From positions 1-24,819 of IMG/VR virus record IMGVR_UViG_3300032272_000070: a stretch of 24,819 nucleotides of DNA; one strand, written 5' to 3'. Under the pieces are notes generated by a model. That model did no database searches. It saw only the letters and a list, made by a program, of their open reading frames with translations, and was not told the origin of the DNA. Shown piece by piece: positions 13,855 through 20,442 of the stretch; within the stretch, counting starts at the first letter, position 1, and each line of letters opens with the position of its first letter. This DNA comes from a virus. Taxonomy: Duplodnaviria; Caudoviricetes. A program made the position numbers and the translations under genes.

Positions 13855-13892
13855 GTTAAATTTAACTTTAACATACCTTCCAAAGTAGTCAA
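13855..13892 (-). promoter_or_regulatory. Promoter plus palindromic operator-like site for the exported-protein gene
   Basis: TTGACT (13887-13892), 16 nt, TAAAGT (13865-13870) with TGn extension; perfect palindrome GTTAAATTTAAC at 13855-13866. Confidence 0.55.
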
Positions 13893-15406
13893 GTTTTGAA
13901 TAACTCTTTATAATTACCAGCTCGTCCAATGCTCTTACTGTGGATAGGCTGTCTGACCTGAGCCCACGATGCTGTCTTAACAACCCGGTCAGAATCATGA
14001 GGGGAATAACACTGCTCTTCAACATCGAGGCCAATATGATCAAACAGCCGGTCAACGGTGCCAACGGTATCATTGACAATCTCTTCATACTTAACATCAA
14101 GGATCTCGATACCGATTGACTTCCAATGATCAACATAACCCTGGTATGCTTTCATCTTGGCTTTAATGTCTTTCAGGTTATAAGCGTAAGGGTGTGGGCT
14201 GGCAAAGTCTGTAGTCCATATACCAACGGCCAGATCATCCTCATCACGCTGCACATTGATAAACTTAGCGCCAGGAAACATAAGGGCTAGAGAGCCAACC
14301 ATTGCAAAGTTGGCTGGCATCTTGTCAGTGAAATAACCGTCCTTAACCCCAGCACAGTCGAGATACCCAAGAGAACAGTCGGTAAGAATGTTACTATTCA
14401 GCTCCGTAAGGCTGTCACAAATAAAGGTATTCTTACCGGCACACTCAAGCTCTCCCTTCCCTTCTATCTTGGAATGGCTGGAAAGTATCTGCTCGGTCAA
14501 GCTCGTCCCTGACCGTGGCATCCCAATAATAAATATGGGAGTAGTCTCTTTTATTGCAACAGACTTATCAAGGGCTTTACTGAAGTCTTCTTTGTTAAAG
14601 ATCTCCTTCATTCCGGCCAGTGTCTTTATTTCCCGATCACTATTGTATGTGTTCTTGTAAAGCTTATTTCCACCCTCAAACACCTTGTAAGCCTCTTCAT
14701 ACCGCTTAGATTCGTCAAGAATAGCCCCAAGCGAGAACAGAATAGTCTTTCTCAGGTTGTCGCTCATCTTAGACTTAAGGGCAATCCTCATCTTCTTTAT
14801 AGCCTCATTATGTCGCCCCGCCATCTTCATAATGGTGCCCCACTGGTGGGTAGATGAAAGCGGCGGAGTATTTACATTTGAGATTAGATCCATTGCCAGG
14901 TCTTTATTCCCCTGCCTTATTTCAATGAAGGCCAGATCACAAAAGGCCTTGTCACTCATCTCTTCGTCATCGAGAAGATCATAATAGATCATCCTCGCAC
15001 CCCTGATATTGCCGAGGTTTGCCAGTGCCCCCGCCTTTACTGCTCTCACGTTTGAGTTGTCTTGGTTAAACAGGTAAGCATTACAGGCGTTGACTGCCTT
15101 TGCCATTTGGCCCATGTCGGCATAGACATTAGCCAGTTCCTTGTTGAGTTTCCAGCATCCGGCCACACTAATACAGAATACCAAGGCGCTTTCCATCGAG
15201 TCCCAGTCCTTCATCATCACAAGGTCTTCAAGTATCTCTCGCTCGGTCATAAGTCCATCATGTAGGGCCTGTGATAGAATCCTGGCACCTAACCTGAATC
15301 GGTTATCCTTCGATACCATCTTTGCCAGGCGGCGCACATCTCGCTTGGTTGGGTTCTTCTGTATCTTCTTGACCAGTTTTAGCTCAGCTTTCTTTACGCT
15401 ATTCAT
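13889..15406 (-). CDS. TPR-repeat sulfotransferase family protein, 505 aa
   Basis: 5'-PSB loop PIFIIGMPRSGTSLTEQILSSH, FTDKMPANF, YEEIV, VKTASWAQVRQPIHSKSIGR; helical TPR-like N-terminal half. Confidence 0.9.
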   Translation of the reverse strand: MNSVKKAELKLVKKIQKNPTKRDVRRLAKMVSKDNRFRLGARILSQALHDGLMTEREILEDLVMMKDWDSMESALVFCISVAGCWKLNKELANVYADMGQMAKAVNACNAYLFNQDNSNVRAVKAGALANLGNIRGARMIYYDLLDDEEMSDKAFCDLAFIEIRQGNKDLAMDLISNVNTPPLSSTHQWGTIMKMAGRHNEAIKKMRIALKSKMSDNLRKTILFSLGAILDESKRYEEAYKVFEGGNKLYKNTYNSDREIKTLAGMKEIFNKEDFSKALDKSVAIKETTPIFIIGMPRSGTSLTEQILSSHSKIEGKGELECAGKNTFICDSLTELNSNILTDCSLGYLDCAGVKDGYFTDKMPANFAMVGSLALMFPGAKFINVQRDEDDLAVGIWTTDFASPHPYAYNLKDIKAKMKAYQGYVDHWKSIGIEILDVKYEEIVNDTVGTVDRLFDHIGLDVEEQCYSPHDSDRVVKTASWAQVRQPIHSKSIGRAGNYKELFKT

Positions 15407-17698: not shown

Positions 17699-18013
17699 TC
17701 AACTCCCATTAAGATACGGATCTAAAGATATCGGTTTCTTGTTGTTCCGGTAATCGGTGCAGTGATGGCTCCCTTTCGTTTTATTGTGGTGCTGGCAAAG
17801 GGTCTGAAGGTTCCCTATTGAATCCTTCCCGCCTAATGATCGCGGAATAATGTGGTCAACGGTAAGGTTCTGCTTGGTATGACACATTAAACACTTGTAT
17901 CCGTCACGATGGATAACAGCCTGTTTAGTTCTGACTGTGATTCTTAGCGGCTCAACGCTTGGCATCTCGGCCAGGAGCCTTGATTGTTTCGGTCTTCGGT
18001 GTTTATTGCTCAT
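17699..18013 (-). CDS. HNH endonuclease, 104 aa
   Basis: RDGYKCLMC...LTVDHIIPRSLGGKD...NLQTLC..HN..KG. Confidence 0.92.
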   Translation of the reverse strand: MSNKHRRPKQSRLLAEMPSVEPLRITVRTKQAVIHRDGYKCLMCHTKQNLTVDHIIPRSLGGKDSIGNLQTLCQHHNKTKGSHHCTDYRNNKKPISLDPYLNGS

Positions 18014-18066
18014 CTTTATCTATGTCGCCATAATATAAAATATTATTGGAGTGGCTAAAGTCTTTG

Positions 18067-18732
18067 TTATATAGCAATGCTGTCCGATACTTCGTTGCCA
18101 TAAACCGCCCACCCTTCATCCGCCTCCCTGCAAAACATTTCCAGCCTGTTAGCGCCCGGGAACCAGTCTTTAATTAAGTTTCGTATTTCGTCAGGCTTCT
18201 TGCTGTGTTTACCTCTGGTGTAGTTGTAAACGCTGGCGGTTCTTTTGCCCTGTTCTGGTGGGCTTACTTTGCCACGCACACCCACAAGTAATATCTCATG
18301 CTGCCCACGGAACCAATACCCCATTCCTATCTTGCCCTTATCCCATACGGCTTGTGTTTTATAGGTAAATCCCCAAGCCTTCATTACCGCTAGTGCCTCC
18401 AGCAATTTCGGAGCCGTTGCCCACAGGTATAAAACACAATCCTTTGCGGCAGGTATCTCCATTGCACATATTTCGGCGCATGTCATTGTGGGGTACTGGT
18501 TTTCAATTTTGCGACTATTGCTCTTGCTAAAAGAGTATTTCCAAGGTGGGTCTGCATATATCACGTTATAAGGCATCGAGACAGCAGCTATATAACCAGT
18601 AAATTCATTTGAAACCAAGGGGCGGCGTTCGGTGGCTTCAGTTCTACATCTACCGCACCGTGTTTCTTCATCCGCTTCAGTGGTCATAAAAACAATTTGG
18701 CACTTTGAACAAATTCTGCTTACATCTTTCAC
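18067..18732 (-). CDS. MT-A70-family N6-adenine methyltransferase with N-terminal CxxC-CxxC extension
   Basis: VIYADPPW, YPTM, LYLWAT, HSKKP, LEMFCRE..GW..YGNE; GTG start with GGAGGG RBS. Confidence 0.9.
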   Translation of the reverse strand: MKDVSRICSKCQIVFMTTEADEETRCGRCRTEATERRPLVSNEFTGYIAAVSMPYNVIYADPPWKYSFSKSNSRKIENQYPTMTCAEICAMEIPAAKDCVLYLWATAPKLLEALAVMKAWGFTYKTQAVWDKGKIGMGYWFRGQHEILLVGVRGKVSPPEQGKRTASVYNYTRGKHSKKPDEIRNLIKDWFPGANRLEMFCREADEGWAVYGNEVSDSIAI

Positions 18733-18779
18733 GTTATTCCCTCCTGTTCCCTTGGTTCAACTGATTAAGGGCGTTATAA
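18590..18779 (+). repeat. attC site A (190 bp, 127-nt loop)
   Basis: R'' ATATAAC (18590-96), 5 nt, AAT[T]CAtTTG[A]AACCAAGGG (18602-21) ... CCCTTGGTTCAAcTGATT (18749-66), 6 nt, R' GTTATAA (18773-79); two extrahelical bases, one mismatch. Confidence 0.82.
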
Positions 18780-19397
18780 ACCCGTAAGGCTAGGTTGGGT
18801 TTTGTTCGCAGTAAATGCGTGTTCAAAGATATGCTTTCCAAGGTTGCTATCCACACAGTTCCGCAATACTTGCCGTTTATTCTTTATCTTGCTATTGGCT
18901 ACAACTTCATACCCGTCAAAATCGCTTATTTTGTTCTTGCTCCGTATTTCTGCTTTGGCAAAGGTGCGCTGCGGGGCTGTAAAGTTGGCCCAAAAGAAAT
19001 GCCGATGAAGTTCAAAGGCAGGCTTAACCAGTGGCTCGTAATATGGTTTCACGTTTTCAACTACCCATTTCCCTTTAAAATAAGTTTGGAGAAAAACTAT
19101 TTCGCCATAAAGTTTCATGTCCGGCATTATTGGAGAAAACCCTTTTCCAATCACACCCACGTTGTGCCGGTATTGTCCGTGGCTAGGGCATGGCGGCGAA
19201 CTCCATATAAAATCAAATTCTGCAAAGTGTTCCGCAAGGTATTTGTGGGCATCACCAGCCACTACTTTGTCGCCAGGGTAAATGCTCTGGTAAACTCCCG
19301 CAATAGCTTCGTCCATTTCTACGGCGGTAACTTCGTGGTTTTCACCCCACAGCTTCCTATTGCCGCCAATTCCTGCGTACAAATTAAGTATTTTCAT
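18774..19397 (-). CDS. Short C5-cytosine DNA methyltransferase, 207 aa
   Basis: Motif I LNLYAGIGG, motif IV SPPC, motif VI VENV, RH.FW.NF, C-terminal LRNCV; AAGGAG RBS. Confidence 0.9.
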   Translation of the reverse strand: MKILNLYAGIGGNRKLWGENHEVTAVEMDEAIAGVYQSIYPGDKVVAGDAHKYLAEHFAEFDFIWSSPPCPSHGQYRHNVGVIGKGFSPIMPDMKLYGEIVFLQTYFKGKWVVENVKPYYEPLVKPAFELHRHFFWANFTAPQRTFAKAEIRSKNKISDFDGYEVVANSKIKNKRQVLRNCVDSNLGKHIFEHAFTANKTQPSLTGL

Positions 19398-19416
19398 GTG
19401 TATCGCTCCTTACGGT

Positions 19417-19474
19417 TTATAACAAAAAATTCAAGCGGACGTAAAGGCACGCCGCTTAATATCGGTCGTTATGT
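19417..19474 (+). repeat. attC site B (58 bp, classic '59-base element' size)
   Basis: TTATAAC-AAAAA-ATT[C]AAGCGG[A]CGT-AAAGGC-ACGCCGCTTAAT-ATCGGTC-GTTATGT; extrahelical C and A (G and T on the bottom strand) as in canonical attC; right spacer 7 nt rather than 6. Confidence 0.9.
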
Positions 19475-19693
19475 GCATAGCCTTTTAATAATTAATTGCC
19501 ATGCGGTTTTAATCTCAGTTTTTACATCGTCATCAATCATATCCCATTCGTGGCTCAACCCTCTCCGGTCACTTAAATCATTTATTATTTCTTCTACGGC
19601 TTGCACATAACCCGGCACTGCACCGGAATTTGCCTCGCTTGCGGCTTTTCGCAGTCCGTCCCAAAACCCACCTTCTGTGCATGTCTTTCCCAT
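19469..19693 (-). CDS. Small hypothetical phage protein, 74 aa (cassette 3 cargo)
   Basis: AGGAGG RBS at 19699-19704; helical core DLSDRRGL..EWD.ID.D...EI...W..II. Confidence 0.75.
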   Translation of the reverse strand: MGKTCTEGGFWDGLRKAASEANSGAVPGYVQAVEEIINDLSDRRGLSHEWDMIDDDVKTEIKTAWQLIIKRLCT

Positions 19694-19737
19694 TACTTCC
19701 TCCTACACGGCAAATCCCGTGAGTTAATTCGTTAATT
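19605..19737 (+). repeat. attC site C (133 bp, 74-nt loop)
   Basis: R'' ACATAAC (19605-11), 5 nt, ACT[G]CACcGGA[A]TTTGCC (19617-34) ... GGCAAATCCcGTGAGT (19709-24), 6 nt, R' GTTAATT (19731-37). Confidence 0.88.
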
Positions 19738-19854: not shown

Positions 19855-20442
19855 TTACTCTATCTCCTTCCTATTCTTGATGACAGCACTCAACAGCTCT
19901 TCAGCCGTGGTATCTCCAAGTCCTAAGTCTGTCTTCTGTAGGTTATCAATAGCATACATGCCAAGCTGCTTCGACAACTGGTCAAGGATTGGCCCCTTCT
20001 TGGCGCTCTTTATCTTGGCTACCAGTGTGACGATATCCTTGTCCCCTGGTTTACCTTTCTTAATATCAACCTCAAATCCCTCAATCGCAGCCGCCGTATC
20101 ATCGTCAAGCTCATGGATCTTCTTTAGTTCTCCGGTAGGATGATACAGCTTCCGCACATCGAAGAACGCCAGCCTTGCCTTTTCTTGCGTTATCCTTTCT
20201 CTCGTAACATCAAAGGTTTGGTAAGCTTTTGTGTCAAATTGTTGCAAAATTGTTGCAATATTAACATTCCGCAACAATCTAGCCGCAGCAGACAGGGCAG
20301 CTTTATCGCTCTTACACTTAGGATATGCGCCCTTATAGGCTTTCCAAGCAATCCGGTCTGGGTCAGCTGTCAACAAACTGATGAAACGCTGGTGTTCAGG
20401 CTTGAGTTGTTCTATCTGTTTCATTACATCTGGGTCAGTCAT
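19855..20442 (-). CDS. terS: Terminase small subunit, 195 aa
   Basis: HTH-like QRFI...AYK.AY...AAARLLRNVNI, then ARLAFFDVRKLY...LK.IHELDDDTAAAI.G.EV. Confidence 0.9.
   Translation of the reverse strand: MTDPDVMKQIEQLKPEHQRFISLLTADPDRIAWKAYKGAYPKCKSDKAALSAAARLLRNVNIATILQQFDTKAYQTFDVTRERITQEKARLAFFDVRKLYHPTGELKKIHELDDDTAAAIEGFEVDIKKGKPGDKDIVTLVAKIKSAKKGPILDQLSKQLGMYAIDNLQKTDLGLGDTTAEELLSAVIKNRKEIE

Follow-up and report, generated by a model that had tools for sequence, protein, structure and literature searches.

Three integron-type cassettes with complementary ends were identified in a 24.8-kb linear phage record (Caudoviricetes; IMGVR_UViG_3300032272_000070, positions 1 to 24,819, 43% complete, referred to here as the window). 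With a probability of roughly 55%, the first 10-12 nt of these ends are read as likely forming, once the circle is excised, the outer attC arm that the integrase binds, and the tails beyond them as probable relics of copying. Having three attC sites in 1.15 kb and being without an integrase in 24.8 kb, the array is a CALIN, a term from Cury et al. 2016 (PMC4889954). The IntI and tyrosine recombinase profiles TIGR02249 and PF00589 gave 0 matches across the record (24.8 kb, 43% complete), and the adjacent intI by which a complete integron is recognised was thus not found there.

The minus strand of the window codes for the portal, the major head protein, and both terminase subunits, and the array is located inside this packaging operon, between an HNH gene (17699-18013) and the small terminase gene (19855-20442). 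Its cargo, comprising genes for an MT-A70 methyltransferase, a C5-methylase-like protein, and a 74-aa orphan, is co-oriented with the operon. A TPR and sulfotransferase gene (13889-15406) lies immediately downstream of the large terminase gene. An Rfam search of the window returned 0 matches, and its promoter and terminator counts were no higher than chance. The array was sought in GenBank phages and none carried it, the DNA of cassette 1 was absent from 401 bacterial genomes, and no RNA run holding it was seen among the sequencing runs listed.

The attC sites were called by a detector specifying R boxes, a 5-nt spacer, and an L stem with one extra base, which gives 0-2 false positives per 261 kb of shuffled DNA; in the whole window it found exactly three sites on the + strand and 0 on the - strand. 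attC1 (18590..18779, 190 nt, + being the top strand) carries two extra bases on its L'' arm, attC2 spans 58 nt (19417..19474, +), and attC3 spans 133 nt (19605..19737, +), its R' (G19731) ending the array. The unpaired spacers of attC1, attC2, and attC3 measure 5/6, 5/7, and 5/6, and the extrahelical bases of their bottom strands read T-N6-A, T-N6-G, and T-N6-C, all 6 bp apart; T-N6-G and T-N6-C are good IntI1 substrates (PMC3053210). On folding, the bottom strand is predicted to be slightly more stable than the top at all three sites. By their boxes, spacers, extrahelical bases, and private R'', the three units are integron-type cassettes.

Each cassette has a left arm on the + strand bearing the G|TT crossover and a right arm, also +, that has R'' at its end. 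The left arm of cassette 1 (18066..18088) encodes, on the - strand, the C-terminus and stop of the MT-A70 family methyltransferase gene (18067..18732, -; PF05063, E 8e-23), and its right arm occupies 18575..18596. In cassette 2, the left arm (18773..18789) holds the stop codon of the C5 cytosine methyltransferase-like gene (18774..19397, -; PF00145, E 4e-8 over residues 1-80) and the right arm lies at 19408..19423. Cassette 3 has a left arm with a stop codon (19468..19482) and a right arm at 19598..19611, its gene being the orphan ORF (19469..19693, -), to which no family was assigned and whose relatives amounted to one weak match in one search and solely itself in another.

All three genes are encoded on the attC bottom strand and use as their stop the complement of G|TTA. 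The attC loops of cassettes 1 and 3 contain both the RBS and the start codon, from which the frame continues through R''. For the MT-A70 gene, the RBS (18738-18745), a GTG start, and a Cys-rich leader with two CxxC motifs all lie within attC1 (loop 18597-18772), the leader frame crossing R'' to reach the domain start at 18576; for the orphan ORF, the RBS (19697-19704) and ATG lie within attC3 (loop 19612-19730). The leader frame of the window was rejected as the usual frame, being shared by 1/16 in other phage cassettes. The RBS of the C5-methylase-like gene is AAGGAG at 19411-19406. In the predicted cassette 2 mRNA this RBS is paired at 0.99-1.0 with the 3' end present and at 0.2-0.68 without it; occlusion of the RBS was discarded as improbable while ribosomes trail the polymerase.

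An earlier note on this DNA had claimed that the cassette ends are complementary beyond the 7-bp core and that the extensions overlap coding sequence and, in cassette 2, the RBS. Both statements hold: all six end stretches were located at the positions given above and are complementary past the core, with stop codons or a C-terminus in the left arms and the AAGGAG in the right arm of cassette 2. In cassette 1, the ends match at 21 bases and are interrupted twice, by 2 nt at positions 11-12 and by 1 nt near 20. The ends of cassette 2 share 16 matches with one 1-nt gap within a C run. In cassette 3, 14 bases match around a 1-nt gap at 11, and the best scripted alignment goes on, weakly, to reach 23 matches over 29 columns. 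With the gap set at 11, unbroken pairing extends over 10, 10, and 10 nt, and each pair has the same layout, an unbroken 10-nt run separated from the tail by 1-2 bases that are extra in the GTT arm. When all 844 GTTA..TAAC pairs within the window, 60-2000 nt apart and anchored at GTT, were ranked, the cognate pairs of cassettes 1, 2, and 3 took ranks 1-3 with scores of 16.5, 14, and 13.5, the next pair scoring 10.5. Cross pairs among the three cassettes scored 5-7, with runs of about 4-6 nt versus 10 for own pairs; each R'' is complementary to the R' of its own cassette and not to that of its neighbour, and each pair is therefore private.

For comparison, a first attC pattern gave 126 viral-contig loci and 136 bacterial-genome loci, with full flanks for 80 of each, to which were added homolog loci, 14 viral loci that a second pattern yielded, and 60 regions beside IntI genes, chosen from 138 IntI-positive genomes for the length of their contigs (bacterial loci L244-L379 and L400-L459; viral loci L118-L243 and L381-L394). 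Two narrower patterns gave 1 and 2 loci. Cassettes were defined as 90-1500 nt between consecutive attC calls, and those without a single covering ORF (91/302 bacterial, 36/159 viral) were dropped, leaving 211 bacterial and 123 phage cassettes, many of them related and one locus (L041) counted twice.

Pairing of at least 8, 10, 12, and 13 nt was observed in 113, 63, 31, and 2 of the 211 bacterial cassettes, and in 94, 51, 25, and 9 of the 123 phage cassettes, two of which reached at least 14 nt; with the dropped rows restored, the corresponding counts were 129, 69, 33, and 3 of 302 for bacteria and 108, 55, 26, and 9 of 159 for phages. The R' of the next cassette was paired over at least 8 nt in only 9/211 bacterial and 16/123 phage cases. 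The novelty that the earlier note attached to pairing past 7 bp thus does not survive, more than half of the bacterial cassettes reaching at least 8 nt and Bouvier et al. 2009 (PMC2727003) having already described pairing over 9-11 consecutive nt in most cassettes, with credit to Rowe-Magnus 2003 and Sundstrom 1991. When cognate pairs were set against permuted pairs within the same core class, each of positions 6-12 was enriched in bacteria (p 0.002) and position 13 was not (36 vs 47 expected). Extending stepwise from G, 31/50 bacterial cassettes go on to 12 and 2/31 of these to 13; taking one cassette per locus, 12/77 reach 12 and 0/77 reach 13. Position 13 is still weakly enriched in phages (42 vs 31, p 0.014), which counts against our preferred explanation.

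Against this background, the 10/10/10 runs of the window are ordinary and its gapped tails are rare. The lowest score in the window, 13.5, was equalled or exceeded by 3/211 bacterial and 3/123 phage cassettes, the highest, 16.5, by 0, and only 1/151 cassettes with 8-11 nt runs gained at least 3.5 from a tail. When the first 10 nt were kept and tails were sampled from unrelated cassettes in 15,257 draws, the tail gains of 6.5, 4, and 2-3.5 in cassettes 1, 2, and 3 had P values of 0.0006, 0.006, and 0.047-0.010, and the tails of this window therefore exceed chance. It might nevertheless be argued that ordinary 10-nt ends with lucky tails were simply selected from very many arrays, given that runs of at least 10 nt are common in both comparison sets, that scores of at least 13.5 do occur (6/334), and that the tails of cassettes 2 and 3 reach merely 4 and 2 nt beyond position 12. 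Given the first 10 nt, however, the three tail probabilities multiply to about 1e-7, and the tail of cassette 1 is conserved in sister cassettes, ungapped to 19 nt in one of them; we regard this explanation as quite improbable. That three long tails occur within one array is more than the comparison set predicts, and this also counts against the reading preferred here. Two further candidate signs were rejected: a bias of G.T wobbles to the bottom strand as a mark of selection (53 vs 25 in phage cassettes, 79 vs 49 in non-cognate controls) is compositional, and longer tails do not offset long attC loops (rho 0.05 overall, -0.19 in phages, +0.25 in bacteria).

The earlier note had further proposed that the extensions lengthen the attC stem only in the excised circle. 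With DNA parameters, the predicted probability that the R and L boxes are both paired was 0.068 in the circle vs 0.0017 when integrated for cassette 1, 0.19 vs 0.060 for cassette 2, and 0.33 vs 0.0008 for cassette 3, corresponding to gains of 41-, 3-, and ~430-fold, and the circle folded better than the integrated form in 162/207 bacterial and 103/122 phage cassettes (265/329). Keeping 10 nt of the own end yields the whole circle gain in the window, sequence beyond 10-12 nt adding nothing. The better folding of the circle stands, but the word "only" does not hold in the model: own ends are also predicted to pair in the single strand of the integrated form, with probabilities of 0.91-0.98, against 0-0.011 for R'' with the next R'. 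Likewise, the suggested selection for integration over excision can account for the first 10-12 nt and leaves the tails unexplained, as there is no folding gain past that length; the alternative suggestion, a trace of how cassettes are created, may apply to the tails and gains some support from sister cassettes.

The integrated folds point to another possibility, that the tails are a selected clamp against excision in which R'' would pair with the start of its own cassette rather than with the next R', so that the phage keeps its methyltransferases. Folding was modelled at equilibrium for naked DNA of 330-750 nt at 37 C, with neither SSB nor kinetics taken into account. Native own-end pairing of 0.97-0.98 fell to 0.14-0.62 in cassette 1 and 0.08-0.93 in cassette 2 when the flank past 10 nt was shuffled (n=4 each), and pairing above 0.5 was predicted for 42/47 cassettes with at least 11 nt compared with 11/92 with at most 7 nt (213/215 eligible cassettes folded). 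In this model the tails raise own-end pairing in integrated single strands of cassettes 1 and 2 and may hence be under selection, a point against the preferred reading. A clamp nonetheless appears unlikely: shuffles were few, cassette 3 has no need of a tail (0.87-0.98 with 10 nt alone), and the sisters of cassette 1 occupy several contexts, from which it follows that this cassette has moved.

Comparably unlikely is that the arms are substrates of a long-arm, non-IntI recombinase of Xer type that would recognise an outer stem of 15-20 bp marked at position 11. The break at 11 in all three pairs, seen also in L053, L042, L041, and L466 (14/15), speaks for such an enzyme. The geometry of every hairpin, however, is of the IntI type (spacer of 5 nt, two extra bases separated by 6 bp), the mark varies between a 1 or 2 nt bulge in the window and a mismatch elsewhere, arm lengths vary, pairing resumes for 3 nt in only 2/27 comparison cassettes whose first mismatch falls at 11, and no tyrosine recombinase is encoded within the fragment. 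The position-11 bulge was also rejected as an invariant signal, being absent from a sister of cassette 1.

Cassette ends were found in 4/80 MT-A70 phage relatives, each end being different and self-complementary (21 matches in L053, 14/15 in L042, 13/14 in L041, and 11/13 in L038). Among C5-methylase relatives, 0/36 examined had an end score of at least 10 (37 were fetched, one partial being omitted), and one, L018, has an attC upstream. In Flavobacterium phage hemulen6-1 (L466; MN812208.1, 1400-4400), methyltransferase genes are split by GTTA..AAC junctions; the ends of gp008 match at 14/15, and its neighbours seem short of one AAC base.

The closest sisters of cassette 1, P0003, P0006, and P0007, were compared as proteins and, at the DNA level, over at most 30 letters. 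Near-identical sisters retain the tail, with different attC bodies and leader peptides. P0006 is 98% identical over the body, and its unrelated leader ends in ten residues encoded by a loose end in contigs of run X2 (translated by eye), where G-to-ATG measures 22 nt (20 in the window), the gap at 11-12 is lacking, and another attC body follows AAC; there the tail is ungapped to 19 nt, 17/19 matching the left end of the window (by eye). A third leader, in the same frame as that of the window, belongs to P0003 (93%). In P0007 (83%), both the C-terminal residue and the R''-crossing residues have changed, which is what pairing over ~10 nt would need; judging from the protein, its ends would have no tail. 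The leaders of all three differ from that of the window, and two are Cys-rich. Since many domain-start relatives share similar C-termini, the C-terminal VSDSI being family-like (P0014, L073) and the 5' AVSM confined to the closest sisters, the 5' tail seems to be the derived end and the 3' end the native one.

The left boundary of the array is a putative attI/attG-like landing site (18018..18065, +), whose CTA is 2 nt off the commonest register before first cassettes in 24 IntI-adjacent arrays. This segment also forms an AT-rich hairpin and may double as a promoter for the HNH and terminase genes, its single sigma-70-like match (9/12) being no better than chance. Loci L461-L464 were rejected as relatives of the boundary, being chance matches within unrelated genes, and L460 is the window's own record. 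A contig from run X1, possibly the source sample, shares 18018-18075 with 3 differences, having another insert and another downstream gene on its flanks, and in the two X2 contigs, from another study, homology ends exactly at G18066. This boundary and break provide indirect indications that the unit may be mobile at G|TT. Circle, empty-site, and strand-change joints were sought in contigs, which lose rare forms, and none was seen. A 4156-nt contig of run X1 carries two attC2-like sites (cf. 19416-19474) 1711 letters apart, and related arrays are therefore present in the same metagenome.

Bottom-strand genes look common in phage arrays. By a heuristic ORF orientation call that errs in GC-rich DNA, the phage set comprised 76 inverted, 28 forward, and 19 ambiguous cassettes and 36 without a single ORF, compared with 1 inverted vs 51 forward among the 52 assigned beside IntI, and at least one cassette with a bottom-strand gene was present in 40 phage loci of the sample. 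G|TTA is the stop in 41/76 inverted phage cassettes, a mirror image of the TAAC at which forward bacterial cassettes stop, and a gene flip between own inverted ends would interconvert the two forms. A 213-nt phage cassette body, 98-99% identical in 2-3 copies, occurs with different R'' ends and attC bodies (L391, L188). The arms might be regarded as terminal inverted repeats of invertible segments or of small transposon-like elements: repeats of 14-21 nt flank each gene, and a flip would spare the ends and could account for the bottom-strand genes. Yet each pair is private, attC hairpins stand between the units, homology to other contigs stops at G|TT, and no target duplication was seen by eye in the gap before cassette 1, rendering this the least credible of the explanations considered, with very little probability.

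In the reading that we prefer, cassettes with complementary ends would be excised and inserted at G|TT by a host IntI acting in trans, the first 10-12 nt likely pairing, within the excised circle, to give attC the outer arm to which the integrase binds. Whenever a cassette passed through the circle, selection would favour a paired arm made up of G and 11 further nt, matching the arms of Xer recombinases, and this selection would account for the bacterial cut-off after 12; the 11-bp arm of IntI is here assumed by analogy with Xer. The tails would be relics of one end copied from the other, probably from the gene's own end, persisting mainly as coding DNA (cassettes 1 and 3) or RBS-bearing DNA (cassette 2), and the 1-2 nt gap at 11 in cassette 1 would represent a frame adjustment for the attC-borne leader. 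A bolder extension is doubtful and is offered tentatively: the stable unit might be the gene body plus a private inverted repeat copied from its own 3' end, with an attC (carrying RBS and leader) swappable at R'', such that bodies 93-98% identical with three leaders in two frames would be snapshots of cassette genesis, the 12-bp footprint being kept by selection.

The origin of cassettes is described as unknown in Cury et al. (PMC4889954), and the lack of a relation between gene and attC was noted by Leon and Roy, as cited in PMC3053210. The sister cassettes bear on how cassettes are made because the tail is kept while the attC body and leader change; sisters with the same gene-derived tail and a changed attC body would point to where and how attC joins genes. 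A sharp stop in pairing after 12 would measure the outer arm of the integrase and could sharpen the calling of cassette boundaries.

Within the literature searched, most subscription journals and the classic integron papers lying outside it, no account was found of the cut-off at 12, of long tails, or of bottom-strand phage cassettes. The XerCD-dif system (PMC9226527), whose XerC/D arms measure 11 bp, shares an arm outside the cut that resembles the G+11 limit of cassettes, IntI being closely akin to Xer (PMC4889954); this is an analogy and not membership, dif being a fixed double-stranded site whereas the arm in the window is a fold-back differing in each cassette. The phage CALINs of Qi et al. 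2023 (PMC9892861) share the attC cluster without an integrase and the DNA methyltransferase cargo, and IntI1 recombined 5/6 of the phage attC sites tested there; the main text of that paper does not describe end complementarity, a bottom-strand rule, or attC-borne leaders, all of which are seen in the window. With integron cassettes and their attC sites (PMC2727003; PMC5027507), the array has in common the R''/L''/L'/R' boxes, the unpaired spacer, two extrahelical bases 6 bp apart, the G|TT crossover, one gene per cassette, and end pairing of 9-11 nt. Unlike the usual cassettes, those in the window have bottom-strand genes whose stop falls at G|TTA, house the RBS and start within the attC loop (cassettes 1 and 3), include an attC of 190 nt (attC1) compared with the usual 57-141, and extend by gapped tails to 14-21 matches. 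Pairing beyond 7 bp is therefore known, and the unusual part of this array lies in its long tails, its attC-borne leaders, and the swap of attC between sister cassettes.
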